Shown: positions 9,436 through 63,534, counted from the whole stretch's first letter. The stretch: DNA of 63,639 nt, filler included, from Collodictyon triciliatum (GCA_043381765.1; 3 parts of 3 records of this genome joined end to end with filler, not necessarily neighbours in it); one strand, 5' to 3'. Program-made: numbers and translations. The notes: generated from the sequence alone by a model not told the origin.

Positions 9436-9751
9436 NATTTTTTTTAGATTTTTATATTTTTTTTCTCAAACCTTTTTTTTTTTTTTTTTTTTTTTTTTTG
9501 AATAAGGTAGTCTGCTCCCATGTCGTGCTGAAAAAATCGTGCGCGCATTTTTCCGCGCCCAAGATCACCTCCACACTTGCGGGGGAAAAAAAACTCAACT
9601 AGACTACAATGATTTTTTTCCCCAAAAAACAAAAAACTGAATATTCTGACCTTAACACAATAGCAAATAGTCTGCAAGGAAGAAACCGCCTGTACCTCAG
9701 TCACAAACGTTGAGAACAGAACCAACGAGAGATACCCCCTGCCGAGCAAAG

Positions 9752-18700: not shown

Positions 18701-21213
18701 CACCGCAAGCACAGTGGAGAGCCCGCGAATCACAAAGTCCACTGACATTTCTGCCTTGGCTGGAGTCTTCACTTCTCTAACGTTGTCTGTATATGTGAGA
18801 TTCGAGACAGGACAAGTCATGGATTACACTCTCGATTCTCGCACAATCTACACTATCCCAGAAGAATCCAAAGGCACCATCAAGATAATTGAATCTCAGC
18901 AAGATGGAAAGCGCACATCTATCAAAGTTCAAGTTATCGGCGACAAGGTTGGGCAAGCAACTATACGTGTCGGCATATCAACCGCCCCTGATGTTAGCCC
19001 CGCAACAGTTGTTGTGAATGTGGTGTCATTCAAGAAATTGAATTCGGACGCAAATCCATTCCCCACATTCAGCGGTTCAAGTTCAATATCAAAGCTTACC
19101 TTGAAAAAAATTGAGTGTACTTCCATTTACCAACAAGCAACACTTCGACTTTTCATGATTCTGTCCAATAACGACGAGCTTGATGTCACCTCAAGCCAAT
19201 ATACATCGTTTAATCTCCACAAAAATATTGGAGCAGACATCTCTGCAATCAGTGGAAGAATTGTATCACCCACCGGGGCCGCTTTTGGTCAAATCAATAT
19301 CGACGGAACATTCTCAACGGCAACGTCAGAACCCCTTATCATTACAGTGTCTGATACCTTAGTGAGCGTAACATCTTTGTCCACATCTTTCCCTACGACC
19401 TTTCGCGGAATTCAAGGCAAATCGACCCAAAAGATGGGTGTCTCTGCTAACCTTGGGGATGGAACAATATTCACTGATGCGACAGGATTAACGGGACTGT
19501 TATCTTACACTTCATCCAACACTGAAATCATATCGATAAATGCAGTGAGCGGCGTCGCAACTCTTCACGAAAATTCCCTCACAACTATAGCACTGTCTGC
19601 ATCGACATGTAAGGGTGTATCCAGTTTGTCAGCTGTATACCCCAACTTAGATGCTGATGTCGGCGACGTCGATATTGGCAAGGCTGATGGCGCTCAATTC
19701 AGTGTATTGCAAGTAAACTCACAATTTGTTATGAGTGTATTCATCAATACGGGGTCTCAAATCCTTGGTAGCATGGACCTTGTGGTGACATATGACGGGG
19801 ACTACTTGACTGCCATGAGCGCCCAGCAGGGAAGCAGTTGGCCAGGCGGTCAAATCGACATTTCATTAAATGACCCTATTGGGAAGGTGAAAATTGTCGG
19901 AGTTACAACACCAGGAACTTCGGCTAGTGGCACTCGCATTAACATCGCACAAATCACATTCCAAGTCACCAAAAATGGTCAATCTGTTGTCTCGGGGTAT
20001 GTGAACAAACTCCTTGGCTCAGATGTGTCGGCTACGCCCATCGGACCAGCACTTGGCGTGGGACAAACACGTATATTTGTTGCTGGTACAGGTTACATTC
20101 AGATTGGCAGTCAAAGAAGCATGAATCTGATGCGAATTGAGAGACAGAATATTCATACAGCACTTCAAATCGAGAACAGGAAGATAGGCCGGTGTAATCC
20201 CTCCACTATCAGAGGAAATGCAAACAACGACTGTGAATTCTCCGTCGCAGATGTCCAGTACACAGTGCAGTATATCGCTAATTTGATAAAGACGCCGATG
20301 ACAAACTCTCAAATGAGATGGCTGGATGCCAACGAAGACGGAAAAGTTGGTATACCTGACGCAATATTTCTGCTCCGTGTGTTGTCCGGAAAATGGAGAT
20401 TCATCGATACAAGCCTTACTTTCCAACAAGGTTATGCGTGCATACCTACATTCAAAGTATCACCGAAAGACATGACTGGAGCGATTCTCACAAGCCGAAC
20501 AAAGTTTGCCTTCGATATTCTCACTACAAACAACAAGGACATGACAAGCACGGTGGGGACAATACAGCATACAACTGCCGTTGGAGTGTATGCAATCCCT
20601 TCGCTGTTAGATTCAGATTATATGCTCCGCTTCCGCACCAAACATGCCGAGGAATCCATCGGAATTGCATTCACAATGACCACGTATGATGCTAATGGAA
20701 ATAGTGGACTGGACAGAGAAGTCACGATGTATAAAGGACTGAATGACGTAATCTTGCCATACAAATCGTTCAGCCCTTTGAACATGTCTTTGATGGCATC
20801 ACCAAAAATGGTCTCAGCCAACTTTGAGCCCCTTGGTCAGAACATCAGCGTTGTGTTCGATATGCCAACCGACAGAGCAGGGCTGTCAGACACTTTTGGT
20901 TGCGAGAAGTTGTTTGTAGGACTAGATGGAATCAGTTGTAATTGGGATGATGACAGCACCGCAGTCATTCAAGCCTCATGCAGCAATAAAATAACTAATG
21001 GGACTGTTATAACCCTAGTTGAGGGAAACTTGCGCATTAAGTCACCATGCGTTGGCGCCCCAGCAAGCTCAGGCTCGATAACAACCTCTATGCCTTCCAC
21101 GGTTGTATCCATAATTGTGGGGCTTTCTGGCCCTCAGAGAATCGGAAAGTGCTCGCAACTGGACGTGGATTCTTCTGCGACCAAACTCATATCGAACAGG
21201 TGCTTAAATCTAT
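9752..21213 (+). CDS. Giant secreted/surface protein: signal peptide, Ser/Thr-rich stalk, 2x [TMEM132-like cohesin + Ig domains, second cohesin, dockerin], REJ/polycystin-like segment; spans an N gap and is 3'-truncated
   Basis: ATG at 9752 followed by a hydrophobic signal (LVGIIVLVLLSSYATA). ORFs 9710-14942 and 15402-21213 both abut the gap with (SQ)n. TMEM132-like motifs VRVWYPAAPINISTPDRILNRI..C..YRYQ and IRVWIPETPVQLLIDDTTL..C..MYQ. Cohesin-like VGSSLTVPVRVNTG..LGSLDTSLVYD. Dockerin double Ca-loop motifs in both modules. Confidence 0.85.
13700..14115 (+). other. Cohesin-like domain (module 1, second cohesin)
   Basis: AVGSSLTVPVRVNTGTKALGSLDTSLVYDADIFDVISYSTG...GVIRIVG...GTLEVVKLVIRSK matches the cohesin beta-sandwich pattern (G-x-x-x-x-V-P-V, YD, terminal G-x-V). 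Confidence 0.75.
14240..14423 (+). other. Dockerin domain (module 1)
   Basis: GNTDGDCEFSVGDVQFTLRYLAG ... DADRSGNIQVQDAIYLIRVLANKW, a duplicated Ca-binding loop-helix. Confidence 0.85.
14816..15500 (+). repeat. Coding hexamer repeat (TCTCAA/TCTCAG)n encoding an (SQ)n linker, interrupted by N gap 14943-15401
   Basis: The same SQ-encoding repeat is present on both sides of the gap. Confidence 0.9.
19690..20110 (+). other. Cohesin-like domain (module 2, second cohesin)
   Basis: VNSQFVMSVFINTGSQILGSMDLVVTYDGDYL...WPGG...GKVKIVG...INIAQITFQV aligns with the module-1 cohesin. Confidence 0.75.
20214..20396 (+). other. Dockerin domain (module 2)
   Basis: GNANNDCEFSVADVQYTVQYIAN ... DANEDGKVGIPDAIFLLRVLSGKW. 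Confidence 0.85.
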
Positions 21214-21313
21214 NNNNNNNNNNNNNNNNNNNNNNNNNNNNNNNNNNNNNNNNNNNNTTAATTAATTAANNNNNNNNNNNNNNNNNNNNNNNNNNNNNNN
21301 NNNNNNNNNNNNN
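21214..21313. other. Artificial contig-joining spacer (N44-TTAATTAATTAA-N44)
   Basis: All-frame stop linker at 21258-21269. An identical 100-bp spacer lies at 42468-42567. Confidence 0.97.
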
Positions 21314-22759: not shown

Positions 22760-25700
22760 TCATGTTTTTTCGATGAGGCATATTTCAAGTGTCTTCGGAT
22801 ATCGGGTCAGGTGTGAGGATTCCATGTTCCTTCGTTCGCAATTGGTGCATTCGCTCCTTGAGCTCCGAAATCTTTTTCTTGTACCACTCAATTTCCTCCT
22901 TTGGCCTAATAGATATTGATTGATTTTTTTTTCAGTCGGTTCAGATGATTTATGTGCGGTTATTATAAAATCCATCAACAATCCTGCGAAACTAGATAAT
23001 AACACAGTTGGTATACTTTCCAAGTTTAGAGGCCAAAGAATATAAGCGAATGTAAATCAGCTCCACAGTAACTAGGTCTACTACATTTTGAATTCCTTCA
23101 TTTTAATATTTTTCTTCTTGGATTGCAGATCCCATATTATTATTTTAACGAATGTTGATTATTTGAAATAATGTAGCGATTCTTCGGTAATATTATTAGA
23201 AGCTAAAGCTATATCTACCCATATCCTCCATTCCTGCCTTGTCGGGGCTTTCCACCCATTTCAGTAGACATTCCTCCAGTAGTGCCCAAATAGATTTTTC
23301 AGCCTCGAGATAAACGGACAGATGAGCCGCAGCATATTTGGAACACTATGCATCGATTAAAAATAAGTGCGTGTAATTATCTAATACGATACCTTTCAAA
23401 TAAATCATCATCTCATTCAAGTTCATATCATATATAATATGTAAAGGGGATTACATGTTTGGATTTTTCCTTCATTATTGGATCCACTCACCGATAATAT
23501 TGCGCGCCATAACGCTCCGATATCCCCAAAATTATATTCTGTGGCTTCCTTGCAAATCCCATCGAGTAACCCGTTTCCTGTCAATTTTAATATCTCGACG
23601 ATTTTTTGTTTGCCCAAGTGAGCAACGAATGAAGATTCATGAGCATGAGCAGAATAAACACAACCGTTGCTCAACAGCTCCTTGTAGATTCGAAGCAGCT
23701 CATTCACAAGTCTAGCATCCATTTCTTGAATTTGTGGGCTTTCTTCGATTTCTGTAACTAGCAATTTGATGTACTCTCCCCACGCTCCTTGTTTTTGTGG
23801 CTCGCTTTTAAGATACCTCTCCACGAGAAAAGGATACAAGTTGTCGTCTTTCGCTAATTTGTATCTGAAAGATAAATATGACCACCAAAATAAGTTCGTT
23901 GTAATGAATAAAAGACGTAGGAGGTGATTTTTTTAGGCTTGAAATAGATGCAAGTCTACCAACCTGTTCTCACTAGAGTGAATAAATCCAAAATGCTCCA
24001 GCATCGAGAAGAAAGCCTCACTATAAACGATCCAATGAATCAAATTAGAATATAAAGTAAAAAATAATAATACTCATTGTTACCATTTAAATCTGTCCGA
24101 TTCGTCTTGACGACTCTCCAGCAGTATTTTTTGGTGGGTTTCCATTCGAATCCCAATATTCGTAACCAAGAAATTTGTGATTGTAAAATGCACAAGTTGA
24201 ATACCTGTAAGAATATCGATGAAAGTGGTTATTTGTAGCAACAGATATCACGCTTCATCTCATTAAAAAGATACTGCGTTTCGAATTATACCGTAGTGCT
24301 CTTCATATTTGCCGATTATATATGACAAGAGCTCATTATCGTCTTTTGAACTCGCCTTCAAAGTAATTTCCCGTAAAAAGACGTTCAGTTTCTCAAACAC
24401 ACCGAAATTAATGAGTTCTGACAAAACCAAACGCAGTAGAGAGGATTTACCTTTGAAAATAAAAAAGAACAGATTTGGTCAAACCGAGTCGGCGAGAAAT
24501 ATCGAACTTGAATGTTTGAGCTTACATAAAGACGACGTCTCCTTAATTCCATCTTCCAACATTCTGATTTGTTCTTCTGATAAAATCTTAAAATATCTTT
24601 CACAATAAGACTGAAAATATTTTATTACAGCGCCGGGCTGCAAGTTTTTGCTATCCATCTTTAAATTTGATGCAATTAACAAGGAAACTTGATTTTACTT
24701 TGAATCGAATAAAGGAAAGAAAAAAACAAGGAAACTTGATTTTTATCCAAACATTTGTCACTCGTCAAGATATATTTGAAAAAAAACTACATCGAACCTC
24801 ATATTCCAAATTTACATTATGGGGAACTTGTTCCTAGAGTGCATGATACAAAATTTACTAGGTATTATCTTACTAGAAAACAAACATAAATTACAGAAGA
24901 AAAATACGCACTTAATGTCTCGATGTGAATAGGAACATACACCAAAGTCTTTATTTAATGCGTTCACCACCTGGCACTTTGCCATTTCGACTAGTTTTTC
25001 TATATCTTTCTTTTCAAACACAAAAACTGGATAACGGTTTCTTATGTCAGAAATTAGTCCTTGTTGTTTTTCTCTGTCTTCTTGGTCCTTATTCTCTTCC
25101 TGTGTACCCACCCAAGTTAAAATTTCAGTTTCTTGGAAACTGAGTGATTCAATCCGTATGATAATGCCCAGAGATAACTTCAAAAGTATATATTCGCTCA
25201 ATATTTGATTACCCCTGTCCTCTCGTAAAAGAAAACACGGTGTGCATATGGATTTTCGATGAAGCCTGCAGCTCGAACCTTTTTTTTTTTTTTGGTTACA
25301 TTTTTTAGATGAACCACGGAAATTTAAAGCTTTTTTTCGGGTATGATTATTTACCTCAAGCTAAAAGATTGTTTGGCACGGGCGCCAACAGCAAAGTCTG
25401 TCGTGAATAAAAAAAATTGTTTACCTCAAGCTCTGTGGCACTCGCATTTTCATAATTATTGACCCATGTAAATTCATGATTTATTCTCCTATTCCACTCT
25501 CTTGGATCATTTCTCTTTGGAATCCACCCATACCTTGAATATAATTTCCAATCAATACCCAAAAAAGTCATATTTTATGTAATATTTCTTATACTAACAA
25601 TATGTCTAACCTTGAGCCCAGGAAACAAATAAAATACTTTGATTTTTTAACACCTTCAAGGCATTTATGTATTGTCTGTTTGTAATTTAGGAGTCTATCA

Positions 25701-28700
25701 AAACATGACATGCCAATTATGCGTTCATTTATTTATTTTTTAATTTTTACAAATTTTTAAGGGATATTATTATGAATAGGTTAAGGGAAAAAAGAAAACA
25801 CCTCTCCGTTTTCCGACTCCTCCCGTGAAACGCCCCATCTCAAATCGATGAATCTAATCGCAACTCCAAGCTTATGAGCGGCATTGATTATGCTATGAAG
25901 GAAATAATAACAAAAATTAATGAGGTTCTTTCTCAAGGATTGCTAATTGAATTTTTTCAACCTTGGTTGTGCGTATCTGCAGAAGCTCTCGCGAACCATC
26001 TTCATGTCCTTGAATGTGGAAGAGAGAAAAATGTGAATATCCTTCATACCTTCCTTTAATTTTTCCCTTTCTATAGGTTTTGTTCCCGGCATAATGAAAA
26101 CGCAAAGTGCTTGTTGGAAGCTTCAACCCCATGTATTCGGCCTGTTTGATTTCGTGCACTTCCCTACTGCTGCATTTGACGTTTGGATAAAACGGATTCC
26201 ATTTAATAGGAAAAGCAAGAAATTCGAGGTTTGTAAGTCGCTCTCCTTTGCTTTCAGGAACCAAGACTTCTGATTCAATCACATTTGCGAACTCTGGTCT
26301 GAGCAAGTGAATATGTTGATGAACTTTTCCTACTTGAAATTTCTCAATGCATTTTGGACAAATAATCCCTTCTTTTTGGATGGCAATATTTACCTTTGGT
26401 TTTATCAATTCATCCACAATGAATTTGATTGCTTTGTACGTACAACTTATACCGTTTAAGGTCTTAACAATAAGAATGATTTTTTGAGTGCTGGGTAGTT
26501 TGAGATACTTTGGTTGGTGTTGAGTCTCCTATTTATATTTAAATGCTTTGTTATTAGAAATGTACAAAGAGTTAAGAAAAGAAAATAATGACACTTTGTA
26601 TCCATCAAACACATATACCTGGAAAGTGGATGTTGGTAAAAAGTACAATAATGCAGCGAAATCGTTATTTTCATTCATCAGCATCCTGCCTTCCGAGTCT
26701 TCAGTCAATGAAAAGGGAAATATCATGCGTTGTTTGCTAAGAAATAAACTGGATGGTAATATCTTAGAGTAGGCATTCAACTTTGTCACAATATCACTGA
26801 TAATGTGGCTGATGCTATTTTTGGGAATTTCGTGTTGGTATTGAATAATGTAATGAACCGCTTCCTTAACCCCAGATAGGTCCGTAACCCAAACATCATT
26901 AGGTGTTTCATCATCCACAAGGATAGGAAAAATGATTTTCGTCTTATTAATATAATAAGCAAGTTTATAGTCACAAAATAGCTTTATGACCTGATTTGAA
27001 AATTCTGGTATCGAAGATGGTATTATTGATCTGCATTTTGATTTGATTACCATCTTTATTGCTTGTTTGAGCTCTGCTTCTTGGTAGATGCCTCTGATTT
27101 TGTTTCTTTGATTTTCTTTGAGAATTTGAGTTTTTGTGACGGCCTCAAGGTTAAAAACTTCACGGAAACATGATATCAATATGTCTGGGTCAAGAAAAAC
27201 TGCATCGCCCATTTTTTCGCCCTTTTCGTTCCAGACAATAATGCCCAAGTCGGCAAGGAATCGAAGAGCTGATTTAGTTTGCTCTGCATCTAAATCGAAA
27301 CTTCTGCCCATGTCAAGTGCATCTTTAATCGACACTGACGGAAATACCTGTCTCCACAGAATCAAAACGTCCTTGAGCTGATTGTATTTTCTTGGTATGT
27401 TTTGTCCGACATTCGGCAACTCTAATAACTCGCGGTGAATGTGCTCTTTCAGCTCGAATATGCCATCACCAGTATTGCTGCTAGTCATAAAATGACCGCA
27501 AAATATTATTTTACCCTTATAGTGTTCTAAGACTTTCAGTCTCTGATACGCTTGCTCACATGCTCCTTTGGCCTCATCCACATCCTTCTGGGCTTCGAAT
27601 GTGTCTAAGTGCGTTCCCACAAGGATAAGATGGGCTCCCGAGCAGATATTGGAAACCATATTAAGCCATTGAGCCACACTCGCCAGTTGCGGTTTTTCTG
27701 ACATATTGTAAACTACCAATGTTAGTGCGTTGCCAGCCAAGAAAAATGAATGAGTTGCGTGGAAAATATCCTGACCACCAAAGTCCCATATTTTTGTATT
27801 GATGCTTGGCTCTATATAATCCAGAAGAATACCATCTTTCTCAATTTCGATTCCATCCGTTCTTTTTCGTTCAGGGTCTACCGTTGAGATGAAACGTTCG
27901 GGTGTTCTGGGTTTGTCTTGCCTCAGCGACATTCTCAGTGTCGTTTTTCCTGCTTCTCCCTCACCAAGTAAAATGATTCTGCCTTCTCTGTTTGTGACTA
28001 CATCTCCAAGTGATGCAAGATAGTCATATATATCCGCAGAGTCTCTCTGAAGTACATTCAGAGGAATATTCTTGATAGTGTTCCCCTCAAAGCGGAGTCC
28101 AGTTCTTAATTTTTTTATATTTGCGAGGATAGTCGGGATTTCCGTTATCTGCATGATAAGAATGATTTTTCAAAGAATTGGATTGGTCTGTTGGCTTGGA
28201 AAGGAGAAGGCACTATTAGAAAAAGAAAATTACATGCGATTTTTTGTTATATACATTTGAATTGGATAAAACAAATGACCTTGTTGTGAGAGAAGTTCAA
28301 TTGTTCTAGGTTCGTGAGACCAGAGATAGAATCAGGGACTGCAGTCAGCTAAAATTGAAATTGTTTACAACAAAAAGCCTCATTCATATAATTCACTTCA
28401 AAAGAAAGTTTTCTATCATTTTTTACTTGACATTGCGATATATTCAGCCTTTTCATCCAAAACATGACACTGAAGCACGAAGGTATTGTTTTTATCTATT
28501 GTGTCACCAAAAAATTAATTCGAAATCTATATATTTAAATAACATTTCGGTCAATACGAGAAAAATAAATGATACTGAAATAATCGTGTATTATAAATAG
28601 AAACCTTGTTGAGTGACATATCCAAAAACTCGACCGCGTTCATGTAAGACAGATGTTCGGGGCATTCGGTAAACTATTTAAATCTTAATTTTAGACCTTA

Positions 28701-29987
28701 ATATCTATTGATATAGTTTTCATTATATAATATTTAAAACATAAGATGTTAAAATGAGTTACTTGATTATTACTGATGTTGAGATACGTCAATTTAGTCA
28801 AGCGTGTGATGTTACTTGGCAATTCAGATATTTCCATTCCGTAAAAATTAAGTGATTGGAAGCTAATTTGAATCTCACTTGGAATCCACCCGCCTACTAT
28901 CATCTCGTCCATCTTTTATTTTTATTTTATTTATTTATTTGGGTTTCTTCTTATTTTTCTTTCATGATTTTTAAATGTTTTCTAGTATATAAAATTTAGG
29001 TAACCACGGGAATTTCGAAGAGTTGCAGAGAACGGATGTGCTTGTGGTCTGAGCATCTCGTATTGTTCCACACCGGAAGTGTTGTGATGCCATTCGGTGC
29101 TCTCTGTATGGTTTGAGTACCGGATGTGCCTTTTATGACTAACTGCTTCAGATTTCTAAGTGCTGTAAATTGCGGTGGGAGTTCTTCAATCTGAACACAT
29201 TGGCATTAGTATAAATCTATTTTGTCTTCAATCAATCCGTGCGTCATTATAAAGGTACTATTTCATAAATACAAAAATCTGTAAATAATTCACCAAGTCT
29301 ACAAAAAAATTGTATATTATTTTAATGTCCTATAATGAAAAGGCATTTGATAAATATTTTCAAAAGCATTGTATATAAAAATTTTGTCGTCTAGAGTTAA
29401 TGCTAATCAAATCAGACAGGAATTATTCTATTGATATCTATTGTGACTGGTCTAAGCGTTTATGTAGATGTAGTTCTACTCACTTTGTTCTGGCTGATGT
29501 TAATAAAGCTCAGATTCACCAGGAGAGATATGTTGGCTGGGAGTGTAGATACCTATTTGCAAATTTCTTTTACAAAAGAGAGCATGAAATCCAAGCCAAA
29601 TACCAAAAAATGATACATGATAGTTGAAATTACTCTATTTGTGTTTATTTTAAAATTTTAATGGAATTATCATAATACCCTGTTGGTGGATACATCAAGT
29701 GACAATATTAGTGACAATGTACAGATGACTGTGGGAAAAAGATCAAACTAAAGTGCATGTAAATTTGTGAACACATTTTTATTCTGGATAGTCTTTATTT
29801 ATAGTTTCATCTAAAATAGTTTATGAATGTGTAACCATGTTGTATCTGAAGCTGATATTTGTGAGGTTCGTCAAGTTTGATATGTTTGCTGGAAGCGTAG
29901 ATATGCCTTTCTGTATGAAATTCAACGAGCGGAGTTGGACGTATGCGTCGTTTGGGGTCCATCCTGGCTTCATAATTTCATCCTCCT

Positions 29988-30043
<56 letters not shown>

Positions 30044-30714
30044 TGTTGATTAGCTTTTTTACGGGTAAGTATTTTATTTTTATTTAGCTTACTGGCTCGT
30101 AGAGCTGCAGGGCGTGTATACTTCTAATGTCTTTGTAAAAAGTGTCTGTGTTACTCCACACTGGAAGTGTTGTGATGCCACGCGGGGCCCTCTTTATGGA
30201 AATTTTCTCCTCGCTTTCGATGAAAAGGGTCTTCAGATTTGTGAGTGCTGTGATTTGTGGTGGGAGTTCCTCAATCTGAGTATATCAAAATTAGTGCAAG
30301 TATGCTTTATCTAAACTAGGATATACATTATAGCAAACGTAATGCTTTCTTGATTCAAAATCCTATGACTTATTTACCGTATCCACAACAATATTTTTCA
30401 TTTGTTTCAATGAAATAATAAAAAAATATTTTAAATAACCTTATTACAATGCATATTGTAGCCACAAACCATCACGTAGCGAGATGATTAGTTTCGAATC
30501 AGGTGAAATTTTATGTATCACATGATCTTCATTTAAATGTAAGGAGAGTGTCTTTTACGTACCTCGGTCTGACTGACGTCGATTGAACTCAGATTTACCA
30601 GGAGGGAGATATTGACTGGCAGCACAGACATATTTTTCCCCTTGAAATTTAACGAGCAGAGTTTGATGTATGCGTCGTTTGGGGTCCATCCTGGCTTCAT
30701 GATTTCAACCTCCT

Positions 30715-30773
<59 letters not shown>

Positions 30774-31576
30774 TTGATTAGTTATTTGTTATGTATAAGT
30801 TTTTTTTATTTGGCTTACCGGTTCGTAGAGCTGCAGGGTGCGAATATGTTCGTAGTCCTCACTGGTTTTATTCCAGCATGGAAGATTTTTAATACCATAT
30901 GGTGCTCTCTTTATGGTCTTACTGCCTGCGTTGCTTATCCCAAGTCTATGCAGATTTGTGAGCGTTATGACTTGCGGTAGAAGCTCTTCCATCTGCACAG
31001 ATAATGTTGTGAGACACTCTATGTTTTTAACATGAAACAAATAAGAAAATAATCAAATTAGTAAATAATCAAATGACTACATTGACACATAAACTCATAA
31101 ACTCATAAAAAATATTAATATAATACTGGGTTGCTTTGAACAGAAAGTTCTGAGAGTCTAGTTAAATAAGATATTTCTGGAGGTAGCAACGATAGCTTGT
31201 TGTCATAAACATTTAGATTTATGAGACCAGTTAAAAACGATATTAGTGGCGGCAATTCTGACAATTGGTTGCTACTAATTCCAAACCATGTGAGTTCAGT
31301 CAAATAAAATATTTCTGGTGGGAGTGACGAAAGTTGGTTTCCAGTTACATCAAGATATCTGAGACCGGTCAAACACGATATTTCTGGTGGCAGCGACGAA
31401 AGCTTGTTGTAATAGAGCTTCAATTCTCTCAGACTGTTCAGCAGAAAAATGCCAAGAGGCACAGTTGTCACCCCTTTGAATCCGAGGTGCAGTTCCGTGG
31501 AGATTTTTAGAGTGTGGATGAACCAATGCCCGGTGATTTTTGCGAGCTCCTTCAAAAGCGCAGCTTCATCAGCCAT
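22760..31576 (-). CDS. Roco protein: LRRs - Roc GTPase - COR - DUF4062 (TIR-like) - probable tandem SAM - C-terminal region (multi-exon; linkage of exons below ~24900 less certain)
   Basis: ATG at 31576 with LRRs (LSSLPPEISCLTGLRYLDVTGNQ). Exon 28148-~26620 has P-loop GEGEAGKTT, WDFGGQ, VGTHLD and COR motif ALRFLADLGII. Spliced IFLSSTFKDM...FIDLRWGV...FICFLGSRYGWIP...SATELE. Downstream exons splice in frame to a stop at 22760. Confidence 0.8.
24678..24743 (+). mobile_element. Micro retro-insertion with 19-bp target-site duplication
   Basis: AACAAGGAAACTTGATTTT at 24678-24696 and 24725-24743 flanks ACTTTGAATCGAATAAAGGAAAGAAAA. Confidence 0.75.
28762..30992 (-). repeat. Three tandemly duplicated two-exon LRR cassettes in the Roco gene
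   Basis: Exon A (xEELPPQ..L.NL..L.I...KRAPxGI..LP.W...LQLYEP) at ~30819-30992, ~30093-30275 and ~29025-29191. Exon B (EIMKPGWTPNDAY..L.SLNF...S.LP.NIS.L.NL) at ~30563-30713, ~29836-29986 and ~28762-28912. Confidence 0.85.
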
Positions 31577-32081
31577 GGTGGCGGAAAAGGAGTATTTTTT
31601 TTTTACGGGCTACAGGGATTGTGGGCGAGTGTACGGAGTTTCTAGTTAGTGTGCTGCATTGTTTTATTCTTTTTTGTGAGAACTGGTGACTGATCGCATG
31701 GATCAATGGTGCTCTATAGAGCTATAAAGGTGTTTACACATGCAGTAGGAAGCATATGGCGAAAGATTCCTGTCGAAGTTGCCCGGTAAAAATAACTCAA
31801 GAGAGTTGGGCTTCTGACAAGAGGATTGTCAAATGTCGCGCGAACGGTATCGAATTCCTCCACAAGTGGATGTGGGTGTGTATCTTATTTTGTATTTTCG
31901 ACATCATGGGTGGTAAGTCGTTCTTCTGTGTTGCCTGACACGGGCTAATCTGCAGTTATTCCCCGCGCACCACTATTGCAGCAGGTGCCTAGGCTCTCAT
32001 ATATGTACATGGTGCGCATTCCTGCTACAATATCGACGAATATATTAACATTTAGCAATATATTACTAAAAATAGGTTAAG

Positions 32082-42467: not shown

Positions 42468-42567
42468 NNNNNNNNNNNNNNNNNNNNNNNNNNNNNNNNN
42501 NNNNNNNNNNNTTAATTAATTAANNNNNNNNNNNNNNNNNNNNNNNNNNNNNNNNNNNNNNNNNNNN
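42468..42567. other. Artificial contig-joining spacer (N44-TTAATTAATTAA-N44)
   Basis: Linker at 42512-42523, identical in layout to 21214-21313. Confidence 0.97.
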
Positions 42568-45900: not shown

Positions 45901-47115
45901 AGCCCAAAATGTATGTTTCATATATTCTAATCCTCATAGTCAAACGCTCTAATCCTTTGTATCAGACACTTCTCCTGATAATACGAATGGAGGTGGGGTT
46001 GGCCAATATCAATCTGACGTACTATGCGAAATATAGGTCATGAATAAAATCGTAGTATTGTCACAGGGCATAAAAGAGATATTCAAAAGTGATAGCAAAG
46101 GAGATTACCTCGAATCTGTTGAGGAAATGGCAAAGGATTTTTTAGAGGTTGAGGAGTCGGTAGTCTACTCAGGTATATGGTTTCATTTAATAGAAATCGT
46201 GGTATGCCACATAAATATATTAAAATCATCCGTTGATGCCAATCGGTAGCTCTCTTATCCACTGATGATGTCTAGTGAACCAGGAGTCCGGACAAATAAA
46301 AAGCAGAACAAAAATGAAAAACACAGGGGACACAGAAGCGCTCGTATCTATTGCGCAGCAGGTTGCGAATACAGGTGCCAACATTTGAAATATAATTTTT
46401 TTTCTCTCTCTCTCTCTATGGATTCATATTTCATCTGGACCCCAGTATTTCTAAAAAATACTCCACTGCGCTAATTCCTCTAAAATGAAAAGGTGAAACA
46501 ATCAGAGTTGAGGACTTGTATCAGGATTTGAGGTTTAATTCCATGTGTGGTTCTATGATAGTCTCTACTAAAAGGTCTAACAATTTTTTTCTTTTGTTGG
46601 AAAATGGGTTACAGATGTATATTTTCTTGATTTGTGAACACTGATAGATTTTATAAGCTGAAAGGTTGTGAAGGAACTTCAATTGGGGATATAGATTTAA
46701 TTTATGCTTCGCTTCTAGGTCAAAAGCTGTCCTGTGTGTCCCCCTGCCTGGTAAAAATGGAAAAGTAGTTGGGATAGTGCAAGCAGTCGATAAATCCGAT
46801 GGGACTGCATTTGATGATACAGATGAGGAGCTTCTTAACATCTTGGTATACTTTGTGCTTTTAATTACGAGCCCTGCTGACTAAATTCTCATGGCTGCAT
46901 TATTGCACACCATTTGGCAAAGTAAAATACCAGTCTGCGCTTTATGTGCACTCCCTTGAAAATTGATATTCTCTCTTTCCCTCTGTTAACTCGTTATATG
47001 TCTAGCCTCTATGTATTATTCTTCTGTAATGGAAAATACACATTCTTCAAATCGCCTTTGCCTGTGCCCTTCCCGTTTTAATGTTGCTTGTCAGATAAGA
47101 TATTTCGTCACGTAA
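42990..47115 (+). CDS. Multi-exon tandem GAF-domain protein (PDE/CyaB-type GAFs); start uncertain
   Basis: Exons encode TGAERGTLYILD, VGKGIVG, DPRFDPEYDRKAGYTTRNIMC...GVMELANKK...FSRTD (NKFDE-like) and a second GAF KAVLCVPL..GKVVGIVQAVDKSDGTAFDDTDEELL. Last exon ends at TAA 47113-47115. Confidence 0.75.
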
Positions 47116-48687: not shown

Positions 48688-49429
48688 TCGTACGTCATTT
48701 AGCTATTGAATGCCGGGGTGAGTAAATGACACTATTCCTGGCTCAAATACATTAACAATACTAAGATATCTACTCTTGCGATATTTCTCGATATCGTGTC
48801 AAATAAAAATACCATGCACTCATTGTATACAACAAGAGATATCATATATGCACTTTTGAATCGATTTTCAGTCATGTATGCAACCGCGTCTCCCTGAAAT
48901 CAGAGTTAAACTTATGACGCTTCTGTTTGCTCTCTTATCAACTCGCCTGCTTTATGACTTCATCTTGCTTCTGCTCAATGCGAGCCCTCAACGAAGCGGT
49001 CCTGTACTGGAGTGACTCGTCCACACTCTCGAAAAAGCATGAGCTATTATGTTTTTTTTTTTTATGAAGTATATTATTAACGGAAAAATGATGATGTCTC
49101 CTTGCATATTACACGCAAGACATATGTAAGAGCATTCGTTGATTTTTTTTTTTTTTTGTATGTACGAAAGTGAAGAAAGATGAATCATACGTTTGATAAG
49201 AGCACAATGATTGTGGCAAAAGAGCAACCTGGTCACAAGCATCGCTGAAGGCAGTCAAGGCCATGAGAATCTCAGTCTTGTGAGTGTTCATGTGGGTCTT
49301 TTAGATGGAGGCAGGGGATTAATACTGAAGGGTCTGTGAATCTGTGGGGAGCAGTGTACTTTAAGGCAACCTGTTTTCTTTTCTTTTTCCATAATGCGTC
49401 ACATTGAACCAAAGCAGTGCAATGAAAAA

Positions 49430-58080: not shown

Positions 58081-61000
58081 CTACCTATTTCTGAAGGGTT
58101 CTGTTCTATTGACGTTGGGCAATGCTTGCATTACAACACCAGGTGGATACCTAGTGTAACTTACGGGGGATGTTTGCATTTGACCGGAAGCGGGTCTGAA
58201 AACTGGCGGGAGACTCTGGCGCAAAGCTCCTCTTTGTGCTATAGGGCCTAATTGTGTGGGCGTGCTGTTTGAATTTATAGAGGGTAAATGGGCAACTCCT
58301 CTCGTTGATGTTGTGTGTCTCATAGATGTGCCTGGTGGTGCTGTTTGATTGCCGTTGCCTGGCCTTGCCCTTTTTAAGTCATCGTCGTCCATCAATTTAT
58401 TTCTTATGACGGCTGCAGCCATTCTAATATCCTCCTCAGGGATTGAAAACTTTTCGTAGACTAGGGGCTGGTGGAGGTTTGATAGAGCATACCCATTGAT
58501 TCCAAGGGAAACAATTTTATCCATCAACCCTTGGCAGCCATGATTACCTTTTATCTTGACATAGTCTAAGAGTTCAAATGAATTCAAATCCTTTACATGT
58601 AGCTTGTTGCCTTTCATGAAAGGAACAGTAAGAGCATCTTGTGATAATTTTACCAGGTTGGGGACATCATTTTCTGAAATGTGATAATATTCCAGCATTC
58701 TACTCTCTACCATAATGTGCAAAACATCATCGTACGATTTCCAGAATTGATTACCGATTTTTTGTGCAATTTTTTCGCACCTCTGATCCACCAAAAACTC
58801 GACAAATTCACCCTTATACATTTGTATAAGAGGTGAGTATCTTATTGGCAACATGATATTCAGTTTCTCTGGGGTCAATTGGAAGCCGTTGGATTGCGCA
58901 TGACTTATAAATTCCATGACAGAAACCAAAGTAGGACGATGTTTGTAGTTCTGCCTCCAGCATGCTTTCATCAAGCGACTAACTTCACTTGGAATTCCTT
59001 TCGGTATTATGGGCCTTAAACCCTTAATGATGAAACTCTGTGGCTGATTTTCTCCCAAGAAAGGCTCGACGCCAGAAAACATATACCATAACAGCAAACC
59101 AAAAGCGAATACAGAGCTTTTCTCACCCCGATGGCCGATATTGACACCATCATAATCTTTGTACACAGATTCGTCATCAAAATAAGGCTTGCTAACAACT
59201 TCATGGATTTCCGGGGCTTGCCAGTTGGCAGTTCCTCCCTGAATCCATTCTCCATAATTGGTTGGGAGGTTGGAACCCACTTTTTCGGGGCCTCTTTTAG
59301 TTGCGATACCAAAATCTGCAATCTTTAAAACGCCCTTTACAACCATAATATTATCTGCTTTAAGATCTTCATGGTAAATATTTTTAGAATGCATGAAACT
59401 CAGTCCTTGGCATAATTGTTTTGAATATGATATTATCTGGTTCAAATTTGGTTTGGACTCTTTTTTACCCTCCATCATGCTCTTTAACGTTATTCCAGCG
59501 TATTCCATGAGCATGAAAAAATCATTTTCTTTACGGAATATACCAAAAAGCTTGACTATATTCTCACATTCTTTACATTCATTCAAAAGCAAGCACTCTG
59601 ATATTAATGATTTGATTATCTCATTAGACTCTAAATCCTCAAATTTATATATAGTCTGAATTTTGACAACAGAGTCTTTTCCTTTGAAAGATGTTCTATA
59701 AACACGTCCATATGACCCTTTTCCAAGATACTCAACCAACTCAATCCTATCGTCGAGATAGAGGCATTTCAGTTCTTTGTCTAAGTTATCCAACTCTATA
59801 CATTTTTCAACTGCCTCTTGACTAGTGCTTTTGCATTTTCTATGGGACTCGTGTTTCCTCGGTAACCCTATTATAATTCAAAAATTTGATCGATAACATG
59901 AGATATCCCAATTATTCCTCTATTTTATCAAAAATAATTTTTGTATTTGTAAAGAAAAAAACCTTCTTCCAGATACACACGCCCTCTCTTTAAAATATTC
60001 GAGTTTATGAGATGACCTTTAGAACATTTTTTCTGGTCCATCGGTTCATGGAAAGATATGAATCTTATGTAACCGCTCATATTTAATGACCGACATTCAT
60101 GACATTCCATTATAAAATATTTGATAAAATTTGGTCTAACAGATGTGACAATGCTACTCAGAATTTTCAGTGATTCAAATGCTATTGTAAATTGATTCAC
60201 TGAGGATATATCCTTGAACACTCGAACCACCAAAGTTACATTTCCGTCTTGGATATGTAGTAAAAATCTTAAATCATCTCCTGGTGCAAATTCTATTTCA
60301 TCATTATGAGGTGAACGTTTAACCTTTAAATGAAGCAAAGCAACGTTTGTGAAAAATATATCCTCGTATTTGCGAAGGATAAGCTCGCTATTGGCTAGTC
60401 TAATACATTTTGTTATCAAGCTGCTTTTATCAGAAATTTGAATTTCGCTTTCCGTTTTCATAGTAACTGATATTTCTGAAATGCAATCGGTTTCTGCTTT
60501 TTCATTCCATATTGCCGTTAAGTTTTCGCATTCCCCCATTAACGATGGAAATGCCAAGCACTCATTATTATACCTTACTCCAAGACAGAAGTGGTCAAAC
60601 ATATAAATTACAACAGAGAAAAAGTGGTTACTTGTGCTGCTCCCAAACTCAACATCCAGTTTTTGTCTTAACTTTGTACAAAGTATAATTCCGTTCGTAT
60701 TTTTTCCGGCACCTTTGAAACTAAATACACTTCTAAATGTAGTAATAAGAAAGGAGGGGTCTAGGATCACTGTATTCCTTATACTATTGTTTGATACATA
60801 CCACATTATTGAACCAAGGTCATGTAAAAATCTTAAAGCACTTTCGCATTGACCACTGTCCATTTGAAGTGATTGAAAGGCGAATACCATTACAGAATCG
60901 AGTGTTTCATACTTTGATATAGTCGACTTGGATGCAAGATATTCTTTTAGTCGCATGTAAGTATTGGGAACGTCATCCTTCATAACATCTAGTTGAATCA

Positions 61001-63433
61001 TTCCTTGGTAGATCGCCTCTTTCAATTGATGAAAACCTTCACCGCTCTTGTTGCTCACCTTTGAATGAATGCTCAGAAAAATATGTGATTTATTATCCAT
61101 CCTTATTTTCTCAAGCTCCCTTTTCATCTCCATCGCATATCTTGGCACTTCAGAGTCCAAAAATGTGCCTGCTATAATTATTTTGGATCCAGGAGAAAAG
61201 TCATCCAACATTTTAATCCAGCGTCCAATATTATTTCTGGACCTCCCGTAGTCAAGTCTATATAAAATCAAAACTAGAGCCCCAGCGGATAGAAAGAATG
61301 GATGTGTTACTTGGAATTCTTCCTGGCCCCCAAAATCCCAACAATTGATGCTGATTGAATCTCTGGGGTCTTCTAGAGATATGCCATGGATATTAACGTG
61401 AACTATTCCATCAGTTCTCGATTGACTCTTCTCCAAAGCCGGCCTAAATTCTTTCGTAGTTTGATTAAGGGATTTTACAAATGTGGTTTTTCCAGCTTCT
61501 CCTTCTCCTAGGACAAGTAGTCTGCCTTGTCTCCATTTGCTGGTGCCTCCGACGGATGCAGTAAGATAATCAAATACAAATGGAGATCCTTGTTTAATTA
61601 CATTTTGTGGGATATTCTTTATCGGATTATTGTGATACTTTAGCCCATCTCGAAGCTTTTTTATACTTGCTAGTATTGGAGGTATTACCTCTACCTAACC
61701 ATGACAATACAAATGTAGAAATTCCATGTATGATATATTTTAATAAATTATGAAGAAATTTGTAGCACAAAATAAGGATAATGAGAAAAAAATAATGATA
61801 ATAATAATAAAAATAAAAATAAAATAAAATGCAAAATAAGCAATCGTTTCTAAATACCTGATTTTCAGAGAAATCAAAAACTGTCAAATAGCGTAAATTT
61901 GCAATAATATCTGGAATTAGACTTATCTATTATGAAATTTTCTCATTTTTGATTATTCGGAACAGTAAAATGTGCGCTTAAAAATGTAACTTATTTTGAA
62001 GGACATAAAAAAGACTCGGATATTTATTTTATTTCTATGATAAATTGTAGTATTTTTTTTAGAAACCTTATTGTTTGAAATTTCTATCAATTCGAGGGAT
62101 TTTAACTCAAAAATTTGTAGAGGAATAGTGGGCAGCTGAATGATTTTTTTTATGTTGATCAGTAAAAGAATAATCAATATTTGTGTATATGTCAAAAATT
62201 GTCATAAGATTAAAGACAAATTACTTGAAGAAAATTCATTAAAAGTGTCCTGATGTTGAGAAAGGTACATATTCTATCCGAGTAATCTTGAATCTAATCA
62301 TAATAATCTCAAAATGATGGATGCTAAACCGTTTGAAATTCATTAAAATTTAAGCTTACCGGATTATTTGATATGTTAAGGTACTGAAGTTTTTTTAATT
62401 CATAGGTAAACTCTGGGATGCTTGAAATCTAAAAATTAATAAATAAAAAAAGGAATTAGACAGATTTTAAGGAATGGAAAAAATATAAAATATACTTTAT
62501 TATTAGATAAATTAATCTTCCAGGAAGAATCTGGTAATGATGAAAACTCTTTCGGGATATCTAGCAACCCCAAGTTAGAAAAATCCATTGATTTCGATTC
62601 AAAGTCAATCAAGTTCATAATTTTGTCGAGATGGCCAGGAATATTGTTATTCCTCATATTCAGGTAAATTAAATTTTCATGTCGTCTTAAATCTGGTACG
62701 GAAGATAGCTGCAGCAAAAAATATAAAAATTAAAATGCGAAATTTATGAAATAATATAGTTCTTAAATATATAAGTTACGAACTTGATTACAGGATACGT
62801 CTAGATATGTTATCCAGGTCATTTGCTGAATTGTTTTTGGGAAATTTCTCAACTTAAGGATAGATGTATCAGTTAGTGGAAGTTTTTTTTGAGAAAATTA
62901 AAAATAAAACCTTCAAACACCGTAAAGATAAATTTTGAAGCTTAGCCAAACAAGTTATTCCTTCGTCTATTTGATTTATCTAGTATAAATATTGAATGAG
63001 TTTATAGCGTCGAAATCAATATAAAGGTATCAAAATTATCTGATTTCAAATGGAGATATATCAGAAAACTTTTAAATCAGATATGTCGAGCGTGTGGAGC
63101 CTGGTGAATGCACATAAATACTCAGGAAACTCATCAATCTTTTCAGAGAATAAAGGTGGAAAACTTCATTTTAGAATCTTTTTCAGCTTTTGAAACTGTG
63201 ATTAAAAAACATATATTATTGATTCAAATTAAATGAACGTCAACCATATTAGAATTCATGATCAGCTTTGATAACGCAGTGCATTTTGAGAATTCTTTCG
63301 GTAAATGAGATATCTAATAAATATAACATAAATACTCAAGCCAATGAAAATTAAGTGACGATGCAATAACCTGGTTGTTAGAAATATCTAGAGTGTCGAG
63401 TGTGTTTATCTGTACAATGATTTCTGGAATCTC
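58081..63433 (-). CDS. Roco kinase: LRRs - Roc - COR - TKL-like kinase - SAM-like domain(s); 5' end missing at contig end
   Basis: Single-LRR exons from ~61856 to ~63433. P-loop GEGEAGKTT (~61480-61510), WDFGGQ, ALRFLHDLGSI. Kinase motifs GKGSYG, VVK, HEDLKADN, DFG, APE. C-terminal SAM-like LGINGYALSNL. Confidence 0.88.
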
Positions 63434-63534
63434 TGAGAACTTTTAGATTGAAAAAATAATTATTTTCTTAGAATGTATGCTTCTGATGAGACTAAATTCA
63501 GTAGTTCTCTGAAATTTTAATTATAGGTTAAACC

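Follow-up and report, generated by a model that had tools for sequence, protein, structure and literature searches.

A probable Roco-family gene of Collodictyon triciliatum with a DUF4062/NIR domain and the remnant of a STAND module

The window, a 63,639-nucleotide stretch of Collodictyon triciliatum DNA (GCA_043381765.1; parts of three records joined with filler), carries on its minus strand what is probably a single Roco-family gene, extending from approximately 31576 to 23196. Taken as a whole, the reading that best accounts for the sequence is a protein arranged as LRR, Roc, COR, a CxxC linker, a DUF4062/NIR domain, a STAND remnant made up of a helical domain and a winged helix, and a helical C-terminus. 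The domains, their order, an intact spliced frame and the conservation of the NIR active site are directly visible; the P-loop core of a STAND protein is absent, and no SAM profile gave a match. Such a eukaryotic gene would combine an LRR sensor and an LRRK2-type GTPase switch with a TIR-like domain from an NAD+-destroying family. In the window gene, this effector would be followed by what is left of an NLR-type ATPase, its helical part, the nucleotide-binding core having been deleted. The original prediction had proposed a Roco GTPase fused to DUF4062 and then to tandem SAM domains; the domain order and the conserved Glu stand and the fusion is probable, while the tandem SAMs are not supported.

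Gene structure and the Roc-COR module

On the minus strand, GT-AG introns allow the LRR exons to be joined to a Roc-COR exon of 1.5 kb and to four short exons for DUF4062. The first coding exon (31127..31576, with its ATG at 31576) was recognised as an ORF and encodes N-terminal LRRs (LRR_8, E 1.8e-18; LRR_4, E 1.1e-13). Further LRR exons occupy 28280..30992, as delimited by ORFs and by tblastn matches to the LRR region of P0001. This protein, of 2181 aa and with the order LRR-Roc-COR-DUF4062, belongs to the transcriptome of the protist Diphylleia rotans (EukProt EP00002). The further LRR exons include three tandem units of approximately 1.1 kb with the motif IKRAPxGITTLPxW, and the last of them is 28348..28280. 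Spliced alignments guided by four homologues all continue into the Roc exon. The two guided models that were printed both pick the donor at 31126 and have in common the introns 29483..29191, 29007..28904, 28762..28674, 28604..28349 and 28279..28149; LRR exon borders above approximately 29500 are uncertain. The spliced model that starts with the Roc exon and ends at the stop codon (23198..23196) has 14 exons, 13 GT-AG introns and an open frame of 1171 aa. Frame-compatible splicing into this open frame bears out the predicted order LRR-Roc-COR-DUF4062 on one strand, and the peptides quoted in the prediction were recovered from the minus strand where it had placed them.

The predicted Roco GTPase is confirmed by Pfam. 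The large ORF 28169..26532 matches Roc (PF08477, E 3.5e-18, 66.4 bits, cut-off 27) and a Ras profile (E 1.5e-13), and residues 259-417 of the Roc exon match COR-A (PF16095, E 2.1e-9, 37.9 bits, cut-off 35.3); the LRR, Roc and COR-A matches all exceed their cut-offs. Within the Roc-COR exon (26619..28148), Roc lies at approximately 27980..27603 and COR-A at approximately 27395..26919, followed by the start of COR-B. The translation contains GEGEAGKT (the P-loop), DFGGQ and THLD, which we take to be the G1, G3 and G4 motifs of Roc. A Roc domain with G1, G3 and G4, followed directly by COR, places the protein in the Roco family. The COR-B region can be aligned to P0001 and to two other D. rotans proteins, P0046 and P0048. 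Its end shares an exon (26168..26528) with a linker carrying CPKC, and this exon aligns to the same three proteins and to P0042. Upstream of it, an in-frame 90-nt intron (26618..26529) removes a TAG at 26531..26529.

A kinase-bearing paralogue

A paralogous Roco gene with a one-LRR-per-exon array occupies 58084..63442 on the minus strand, 32 kb from the DUF4062 gene in the same window, and was identified by Pfam, tblastn and a tree. Its Roc-COR exon (61694..59931; Roc 7.1e-18, COR-A 1.1e-11) is followed by a protein-kinase exon (59877..58084; Pkinase 4.7e-39). The DUF4062 gene had been described as carrying its effector instead of a kinase, and this framing is apt because the paralogue's LRR-Roc-COR core ends in a kinase exon.

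The DUF4062/NIR domain

Four short exons encode most of the DUF4062 domain. The first (MKDIHIFLSSTFKDMKMVRESFCRYAQP, 25962..26070) is supported by positions 2-21 of PF13271 and by spliced alignments, and the second (…FIDLRWGVSREESENGE, 25802..25892) by spliced alignments and invariant D, R and G columns. The third (…CLEGVKKSKYFICFLGS, 25611..25675) covers PF13271 positions 40-63, and the fourth (YGWIP…NASATELE, 25425..25533) has the codon for the catalytic Glu as its last (25427..25425); spliced alignments back both. Two further exons (25278..25213 and 25099..24908; …VFFYER…VVNALNKDF) complete the TIR-like domain in spliced and family alignments.

Searched singly, the exons give two collinear PF13271 matches, in ORF 26122..25946 (positions 2-21, E 0.0018, 18.9 bits) and ORF 25732..25592 (positions 40-63, E 0.0046, 17.6 bits), neither of which alone reaches the 24.7-bit cut-off. 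The homologues do pass it (P0001 with 38.8-42.2 bits, P0042 with 52.2 bits). The spliced window protein matches DUF4062 proteins in stretches with E values of 3e-40 (P0047, P0045) and 3e-39 (P0044). In a 40-sequence family alignment, it keeps 8/8 invariant and 24/27 nearly invariant columns. This similarity and column conservation, which lie far beyond chance, argue for the predicted DUF4062 identity, as do the collinear partial matches.

The catalytic Glu (SATELE, TE-L-E) is retained, as had been predicted. It corresponds to TEP1 E1008 by way of the homologue P0001, aligned to the TEP1 TIR crystal chain 11gz_A (E 7.6e-13), in which the second Glu of TE.E falls on E1008 and GSR.G on R976; the numbering offset of this chain was deduced from R908, R954 and R976. 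The equivalent of R976 is also kept; at R908, the window has K and P0001 has L. Neither TIR (PF01582) nor TIR_2 (PF13676) matched the exons of the window gene or residues 1590-2181 of P0001. A 2026 preprint treats DUF4062 as a family apart from canonical TIR, and the two are related at the fold and superfamily level only.

Three 2026 preprints describe DUF4062 (NIR) domains as TIR-like NADases, with activity demonstrated for bacterial systems and human TEP1, and with catalytic Glu residues at TEP1 E1008, PsAvs2 E108 and KpSwz E97. This gives experimental backing, in bacterial proteins and TEP1, to the earlier view of DUF4062 as a TIR-like, nucleotide-cleaving effector. Among four purified human DUF4062 proteins, only TEP1 is reported to have been active, and NWD1, NWD2 and NPHP3 inactive. 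The same architecture could then hold a non-enzymatic NIR domain, as may be the case in those three proteins, and act as a GTPase-regulated scaffold or interaction module and not as an NAD+-depleting effector. The substitutions at the R908 position are compatible with this, as is the loss of the ATPase core from a module that usually drives oligomerisation. However, the inactive human proteins may merely be without their activator. The catalytic Glu, all eight invariant columns and R976 are kept together in the window, and the closest non-Roco relatives of its NIR domain are TEP1-type, the top ones at 39% and 32% identity. We consider a scaffold of this kind unlikely, and favour an NIR domain that, judged by its conserved residues, may hydrolyse NAD+.

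Continuity between COR and DUF4062

The COR-to-DUF4062 junction is ambiguous, as 16 frame-compatible GT-AG introns can be enumerated; the preferred one (26071..26167, 97 nt, phase 1) comes from a P0042-guided spliced alignment. This ambiguity leaves room for two adjacent genes, namely a Roco gene ending after COR and a separate gene for the NIR domain and helical remnant. Read without splicing, the COR frame runs on to a stop at 25917, and in-frame ATGs (of MPGTK… and MKDIH…) lie just 5' of the NIR domain, from either of which the second gene could start. Against this, the last COR residues are only approximately 100 nt from the start of the NIR domain, and the CxxC linker is conserved. In addition, five D. 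rotans ORFs combine Roc-COR with DUF4062 in one frame and align in single stretches across the junction. A sixth, P0042, has DUF4062 behind the tail of COR-A and shares its C-terminus with the window gene.

Residues 979-2129 of P0001 align with residues 1-1158 of the window frame in one BLASTP stretch (31.8% identity over 1230 columns, E 2e-166). P0043, P0046 and P0048 are LRR-Roc-COR-DUF4062-AAA_16/NPHP3_N proteins in one ORF, and P0035 has the same arrangement, with a Walker A motif. Single phmmer stretches cover Roc-COR-DUF4062 in comparisons of the window with P0046, P0043, P0048 and P0035. These relatives all come from one de novo transcriptome, in which P0001, P0035, P0042, P0043, P0046 and P0048 are all Trinity ORFs. 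Contamination or mis-assembly within this transcriptome is possible, although the ORFs fall into six separate clusters and have several isoforms, which speaks against it.

Two adjacent genes thus appear decidedly improbable, and one gene is preferred. A single mRNA across that gene is suggested by homologous transcripts from another species, D. rotans, on which the proposal leans.

A probable STAND remnant in place of tandem SAM domains

The TIR-like domain is followed by four exons (24658..24526, 24450..24292, 24204..24084 and 24020..23964) that appear to encode the helical domain and winged helix found after the nucleotide-binding domain in STAND proteins. They were recognised through a second matched stretch and conserved motif columns. 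C-terminal helical exons (23864..23492 and 23345..23199) then align to P0001 as far as residue 2129 and to P0042 as far as residue 876. The second stretches include q856-1039 against P0046 1654-1828 (9e-10) and one that matches P0044 413-650 (7e-9). The post-core motif columns K.L..Q, L.EL..FG and GL are conserved in the window, where K248, L250, L273, G284 and G337 are kept.

The P-loop core itself is missing. Between alignment anchors, the window has 43 residues, P0001 has 45 and P0042 has 42, compared with 212-303 in the 37 P-loop-bearing proteins among the 40 aligned. Approximately 175 residues are absent from the window gene and its two D. rotans relatives, and the site of the deletion is directly after the exons that complete the TIR-like domain. 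The second stretch is shifted by approximately 180-200 residues in 131 of 154 matched proteins. The only Walker-A-like motif in the 1171-aa frame is the Roc P-loop, and tblastn with P-loop-bearing relatives (P0043, P0046, P0048) found no P-loop segment anywhere in the window. Of the features of STAND/NACHT proteins, the gene retains the post-core helical domain and winged helix, and has no P-loop core with Walker A and B; it is therefore a STAND remnant and not a STAND member.

Evidence on fold comes from an AlphaFold2 model of the homologue P0001 (residues 1590-2181; pLDDT 91.5, pTM 0.89). It has a beta/alpha domain of five strands, a disordered stretch (218-226), helices, a wing made of a beta-hairpin, and an array of helices. 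In P0001, strands alternate with helices in the first domain, as in a TIR-like fold. Foldseek gave no match at E<=0.001. Matches to Apaf-1 had probabilities of 0.98-0.99, and those to the plant TIR entries 4c6t_D (RPS4/RRS1) and 7xoz (RPPT-TIR) had probabilities of 0.98 and 0.93, with E values of approximately 0.1 and TM scores on target length of 0.50 and 0.45. No SAM family stands in the Atlas rows shown, whose named families are STAND winged-helix families, nSTAND3, DUF7791 and TPR; the winged-helix entries WHD_NWD1 (0.89) and WHD_TANC1 (0.87) serve as leads only.

The original prediction read two segments encoded by the four post-core exons as probable tandem SAMs, oligomerising and activating the effector as in SARM1. 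The region is indeed helical in the P0001 model, and SAMD9 chains have the lowest Foldseek E values (3.8e-3, probability 0.75), though these are whole-protein alignments of approximately 650-700 columns over chains of 1047-1121 residues and not SAM-domain matches. Pfam SAM families gave no match at E<=10 in P0001 1590-2181, P0042 or exons I, J, K and M of the window gene, a search in which HMMER filters drop most matches above approximately 0.1, and none at E<=1 in the window ORFs. Both quoted segments fall on columns that DUF4062-NACHT proteins conserve immediately behind the P-loop core. In the model, the region folds into a helical bundle and a winged helix that includes a beta-hairpin; five-helix bundles of the SAM type are not seen.

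The lack of a SAM profile match in these searches and the non-SAM topology of the P0001 model speak against the SAM assignment of the two segments, and make tandem SAMs, and SAM-driven activation with them, very hard to credit. On alignment and predicted fold, the segments instead correspond to HD1 and the winged helix left over from a STAND (NACHT-like) module. Because Foldseek returned nothing at E<=0.001, this label depends on alignment to regions that carry no annotation, on secondary structure, on the Foldseek probabilities and on Atlas scores below 0.9.

Proposed origin and mode of action

The ancestor probably arose when a Roco module was joined to the N-terminus of an intact NIR-STAND protein. 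The full LRR-Roc-COR-NIR-STAND form still occurs in D. rotans; one branch, which includes the window gene, would later have dropped the ATPase core. By analogy with related systems, the LRRs may sense a ligand, and the Roc-COR GTPase and the retained helical/winged-helix scaffold may control self-association. Clustering of NIR domains could then switch on NAD+ hydrolysis. The protein might thereby act as an immune or cell-death-type receptor, in the manner of bacterial LRR-Roc-COR-effector proteins and NIR-bearing NLR-like proteins.

Comparison with known systems

P0001 and P0042, for which no description was found in the literature searched, are most similar to the window gene. They share its domain order, the deletion of approximately 175 residues and the C-terminal helical region, and their Roc-COR is sister to that of the window (SH-aLRT 84). 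P0001 differs in its longer LRR region, with approximately 980 aa ahead of Roc, and in its linker, where the CxxC…HCxxxH motif is intact. P0043, P0046, P0048 and P0035 belong to the same Roco clade (SH-aLRT 99) and share the NIR domain and the helical C-terminus that follows the nucleotide-binding domain. They have kept Walker A and B beside Roc, and therefore carry two nucleotide switches, whereas the window gene has the GTPase only.

TEP1, NWD1, NWD2, NPHP3 and TPR-NACHT proteins likewise have an NIR domain with the catalytic Glu and a homologous helical domain after the NTPase. In these proteins, however, a working NACHT comes directly after the NIR domain, and the repeats that serve as sensor, WD40 or TPR, lie at the C-terminal end. 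The window gene has neither the P-loop core nor C-terminal repeats, and has LRR-Roc-COR at its N-terminus. SARM1, a SAM-SAM-TIR NADase, resembles the window gene in its TIR-type fold, catalytic Glu and expected oligomerisation-driven activation, but SAM is undetectable in the window gene, and domain order and regulators differ.

Kaur et al. (2021, eLife 10:e70394, PMC8195603) describe as predicted conflict systems bacterial proteins in which LRRs, an AP-GTPase (Roc) and COR are combined with effectors, among them TIR/DRHyd and over 20 others. Our set also contains Roco proteins, bacterial and marine, that carry Pfam domains of the TIR type (P0020, P0023, P0028, P0029). The bacterial LRR-Roc-COR-effector proteins follow the same logic as the window gene, from sensor repeats through Roc and COR to a C-terminal effector; they are, in contrast, prokaryotic, fall in another Roc-COR clade in the tree and have no STAND remnant after the effector. 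Finally, the Roco kinases (LRRK2, the Dictyostelium Roco kinases and the window paralogue, which shares a Roc-COR clade with the DUF4062 gene) have the LRR-Roc-COR core in common with the window gene, but their output is a protein kinase, whereas that of the window gene is an NADase-like domain.

Gene model of the Roco-DUF4062 fusion

The DNA of the window is eukaryotic, and its introns are short. The original prediction had proposed a Roco GTPase fused to a TIR-like DUF4062 domain (PF13271, also called NIR) and tandem SAMs, and all of its peptides could be located in minus-strand stop-to-stop ORFs. The centre of this gene, which spans approximately 31576 to 23196 on the minus strand, is an ORF of 546 aa (28169..26532) that carries a Roc domain (PF08477, E 3.5e-18) and COR-A (PF16095, E 2.1e-9, exceeding the cut-off). 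Upstream of the Roc exon is an LRR ORF (31609..31118, minus strand; LRR_8, E 1.8e-18) with an ATG at 31576. Downstream, PF13271 is matched collinearly by two short ORFs, one at profile positions 2-21 (E 0.0018) and the other at 40-63 (E 0.0046); taken alone, both fall below the gathering score.

Exons were joined using a protein-guided spliced aligner written for this analysis. The guides were P0001, which is the best homologue, and then P0042, both from the transcriptome of Diphylleia rotans. Positions 28348..23238 are collinear with P0001 residues 956-2129, and positions 27293..23238 with P0042 residues 1-876. With artefacts removed, the gene model comprises 14 exons from the Roc exon onward, separated by 13 GT-AG introns of 63-249 nt, and the spliced translation of this part is 1171 aa long, with a single, terminal stop (23198..23196). 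The TAG that closes the 546-aa ORF sits within a 90-nt in-frame intron (26618..26529). The LRR exons join the Roc exon in frame, and the five proximal introns are identical under two homologous guide proteins.

The junction between COR and DUF4062 is the weakest point of the gene model. A frame change is required here, and enumeration identified 16 GT-AG introns that could supply one. Among these options, the donor of the 97-nt intron 26167..26071 is the best, and the P0042-guided alignment picked this intron. The P0001-guided junction (26127..26071) is doubtful and was dropped after frame analysis and the P0042-guided run, which also ruled out two P0001-guided in-frame introns (27140..27072 and 26282..26243) as spurious. 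For exon K, one of the exons behind the DUF4062 domain, the P0042-guided run picked an alternative frame (VFNLCILQSQISWLRILGFEW…). This was rejected because the originally predicted frame alone keeps the phase needed for splicing onto the exon that follows, the conserved EAFFSMLEHFGFI.

The LRR region (28690-31060, minus strand) contains three tandem units of ~1.1 kb, each with an 'IKRAPxGITTLPxW…LQLYEP' exon and an 'MKPGWTPNDAY…' exon. The GIT.LPCW motif of these units is also present in P0001. Long A/T homopolymer tracts occur in the introns of this region, at about 29970-30083 and 30700-30781.

Distribution of the fusion

BLASTP aligns the spliced window protein with P0001 in a single stretch (residues 1-1158 against 979-2129; 31.8% identity, E 2e-166). 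Similarly, phmmer finds single stretches over Roc, COR, and DUF4062 to the D. rotans proteins P0046, P0043, P0048, and P0035. Pfam domains order P0001 as LRR-Roc-COR-DUF4062, and P0043, P0046, and P0048 as LRR-Roc-COR-DUF4062-AAA_16/NPHP3_N. In P0035, LRR-Roc-COR-DUF4062 is followed by a Walker A motif before the ORF ends, and P0042 has the tail of COR-A, DUF4062, and a C-terminus as in the window gene. Since all six proteins come from Trinity ORFs in a single EukProt transcriptome, the fusion occurs on single assembled D. rotans transcripts, in several paralogues and isoforms. This comparative support suggests that the window NIR gene is likewise a single gene, and its architecture as modelled is very probably correct.

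The Roco-NIR fusion was found in one data set, that of D. rotans, and in the window only. A word-indexed search with the COR-B-to-NIR region of P0046 yielded 46 proteins, among which the query alone was a Roco. Five further proteins in which DUF4062 is internal also proved not to be Rocos, and no fusion outside D. rotans appeared among the domain-scanned subset of the top 150 representatives.

The DUF4062 domain and its catalytic residues

Three 2026 preprints describe DUF4062, under the aliases NIR, Swarozyc, and Evangelion, as a TIR-like NADase. They report that bacterial DUF4062 proteins require a catalytic Glu, that human TEP1 hydrolyses NAD+ and NADP+ via E1008, and that NWD1, NWD2, and NPHP3 are inactive in the assay used for TEP1.

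Residues 1590-2181 of P0001 match the TEP1 TIR crystal chain 11gz_A (E 7.6e-13). The numbering offset of this chain (893) was inferred by placing the published R908, R954, and R976 on its Arg residues; it puts E1008 at the second Glu of T-E-x-E. The predicted retention of the conserved Glu is borne out: the window reads SATELE, and the equivalent of E1008 is the last codon of exon 25533..25425 (minus strand). R976 (GSRYG) is also retained, and the position of R908 is occupied by K in the window and by L in P0001. Of the columns in a 40-sequence family alignment, all 8 invariant ones and 24 of the 27 nearly invariant ones are conserved in the window protein. The chances that the window protein has the predicted NADase activity are about even. 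In a tblastn search, the 'ASATELE' region of P0001 DUF4062 also matched weakly at 46478..46398 (minus strand; E 3.6), which is probably due to chance.

A STAND remnant without its P-loop core

The segments that follow DUF4062 had been read as tandem SAMs. This reading did not hold, as no SAM family was found at E<=10 for P0001 1590-2181, P0042, or the window exons I, J, K, and M. The same P0001 segment served as the query of a library-wide phmmer search, in which 4908 proteins matched at E<=0.001. Local re-scoring of stored proteins revealed a second stretch, starting past query residue 200, in 131 of 154 matched proteins; among the proteins listed, it falls roughly within query residues 200-560, mostly about 230-340. 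In the targets, this stretch is displaced ~180-200 residues downstream of its collinear position and, by Pfam positions, lies just past the NACHT/AAA_16 core.

The interval between two alignment anchors is 45 residues in P0001, 42 in P0042, and 43 in the window. The same interval comprises 212-303 residues in 37 other proteins, which here contain G..G.GKS and the remainder of the P-loop core, and P0035 ends inside it, at 112. The first supposed SAM segment (…ETSSL|CKSSLLRLVLSELINFGVFEKL) aligns to the family motif K.L..Q…NPL.L…L.ELR.FG..E.L, and the second (GIQLVHFTITNFLVTNIGIRMETHQKIL) aligns to V…L..L..S..GL.E.EL. When P-loop-bearing relatives were searched against the 63.6-kb window (tblastn), no part of it matched their P-loop segments, and the largest intron near the deletion site is 249 nt.

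The AF2 model of P0001 1590-2181 (pLDDT 91.5, pTM 0.89) consists, in order, of a five-stranded beta/alpha domain, a disordered segment (218-226) that coincides exactly with the deletion site, a helical bundle, helices with a beta-hairpin (372-387), and a helical array to the end. A beta-hairpin with helices is typical of a winged helix. Foldseek returned no PDB match to this model at E<=0.001; the top probabilities were for Apaf-1 (0.98-0.99) and two plant TIR-domain entries, 4c6t_D RPS4/RRS1 (0.98) and 7xoz RPPT-TIR (0.93). SAMD9 also appears among the rows, through alignments over the whole protein rather than matches to a SAM domain. Atlas look-alikes of the P0042 C-terminus, which are leads only, belong to STAND winged-helix families (WHD_NWD1 0.89, WHD_TANC1 0.87, WHD_GPIID 0.85, and WHD_MalT 0.84). 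A PDB profile search with alignment A1 was dominated by TPR and LRR repeats and gave no label for the helical region. We conclude that the region after NIR is a STAND remnant, comprising a helical domain, a winged helix, and a helical C-terminus, and not SAM. If the protein has an oligomerisation scaffold, it would be this remnant, which corrects the SAM reading.

A kinase paralogue and a proposed history of the fusion

A paralogous Roco kinase gene (63442..58084) lies on a separate record, on the same strand of the window as the NIR gene. Its LRR array has ~9 exons, each encoding one LRR (~23 aa), with phase-0 introns. Next come a Roc-COR exon (61694..59931; Roc 7.1e-18, COR-A 1.1e-11) and an exon encoding the kinase, in which DFG and APE are present (59877..58084; Pkinase E 4.7e-39). 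There are 15 possible frame-compatible introns between COR and kinase. Spliced alignment downstream of the paralogue's COR end gave only noise and was set aside, the region being the kinase exon.

The Roc-COR parts used for a quick ML tree (23 rows) came from both Roco genes of the window, five D. rotans proteins (P0042 lacks Roc and was omitted), one oyster LRRK, and 15 hand-picked prokaryotic or metagenomic Rocos. The tree unites the D. rotans proteins with the two Roco genes of the window in one clade (SH-aLRT 99), in which P0001 is the sister of the window NIR gene (SH-aLRT 84). The simplest history would be that a Roco was fused ahead of a NIR-STAND protein and the P-loop core was lost once, before P0001, P0042, and the window gene diverged, with the kinase paralogue persisting alongside.

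A bolder proposal, which we consider rather unlikely, is that, within a single eukaryotic lineage, a Roc-COR GTPase was grafted onto a NIR-STAND immune-type receptor and then became its sole nucleotide switch. The 'double-switch' intermediates, with both GTPase and ATPase, would survive in D. rotans, and the end state would be represented by two other D. rotans proteins together with the window NIR gene, in which the ATPase core is deleted and the helical/winged-helix scaffold kept. One switch class would thus have replaced another over an NADase effector, giving the first eukaryotic Roco that destroys NAD+ instead of phosphorylating.

The end of COR-B in this Roco clade bears the motif CxxC…(about 21-27 aa)…C/HCxxxH, which may be a small element that binds zinc. 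It is located at 26340-26200 and 60110-59990 in the window (both minus strand), and in P0001, P0035, and P0042. The motif reads CPKC…HCTKGH in P0001 and C.EC…CSKGH in the window kinase paralogue; the NIR gene retains CPKC only (…PESKGERL), with a His-rich HQHIH close by.

Other features of the window

A very long and apparently intronless open frame (9671-21266, plus strand) is split by a 459-N gap into parts of 1757 and 1955 aa, each with TMEM132-type Ig domains (PF16070, E 5.4e-13 and 1.1e-6). GC content is ~0.41-0.48 around this frame, versus ~0.35 near the Roco gene. A 919-aa ORF (39510-42266, plus strand) combines a WD40 propeller with Ephrin_rec_like repeats. Among many WD40 families, the propeller matches the second propeller of TEP1 and the C-terminal propeller of NWD2; tblastn found no DUF4062 or NACHT beside this ORF. 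Further ORFs encode NHL repeats (47515-48702, minus strand), an HMG-box (50193-50831, minus strand), and a Na/Ca-exchanger (55155-56723, plus strand). The stretches 21214-21313 and 42468-42567 are alike, each being a pair of 44-N runs with 12 bases between them. Larger N gaps (14943-15401 and 33308-33697) are assembly gaps or masked stretches.

Proposed mechanism and significance

Roco research has been driven mainly by LRRK2 and, to our knowledge, the known output domain of eukaryotic Rocos is a kinase. A eukaryotic Roco with an output from the recently described NIR/DUF4062 NADases would tie the LRRK2-type switch to NAD+-depletion immunity. The series of forms (kinase paralogue, then NIR with STAND, then NIR whose STAND is gutted) gives a testable view of effector and switch swapping in modular immune receptors.

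According to the 2026 preprints, NIR and TIR NADases are activated through induced oligomerisation. In NLR-like NIR proteins, the STAND ATPase would drive this step. With the ATPase core gone from the window protein, the upstream Roc GTPase, which appears intact (GEGEAGKT, DFGGQ, THLD), and COR may take its place, with the LRRs as the likely sensor. The most likely mechanism is that of a GTPase-gated, LRR-sensing, NAD+-hydrolysing receptor. A putative role in immunity or cell death is proposed only tentatively.

Roc, Roco, LRR, and GTPase go unmentioned in the main texts of all three DUF4062 preprints, where 'leucine-rich' occurs once, within the expansion of 'NLR'; supplementary tables may list the D. 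rotans proteins. In particular, EukProt v3 was searched for Table S5 of 10.64898/2026.09.04.749371, which may already include D. rotans Roco-NIR proteins. A 2026 survey of eukaryotic NIR proteins describes the vast majority as NLR-like, with NIR at the N-terminus. Literature searches for 'Roco protein' with 'TIR domain' and for 'Roc-COR' with 'NACHT' returned just two Aravind-group papers and unrelated items. Therefore, the Roco-effector logic and the NIR effector are already known, the eukaryotic combination is new, and the gutted STAND module is unusual.

The link between Rocos and NAD+ depletion has so far been catalogued for bacteria only. Bacterial proteins that combine LRR, Roc, and COR with TIR, DRHyd, and >20 other effector domains were catalogued in 2021 as predicted conflict systems (PMC8195603), and it is with these LRR-Roc-COR-effector proteins that the window NIR gene shares its Roco-effector logic.
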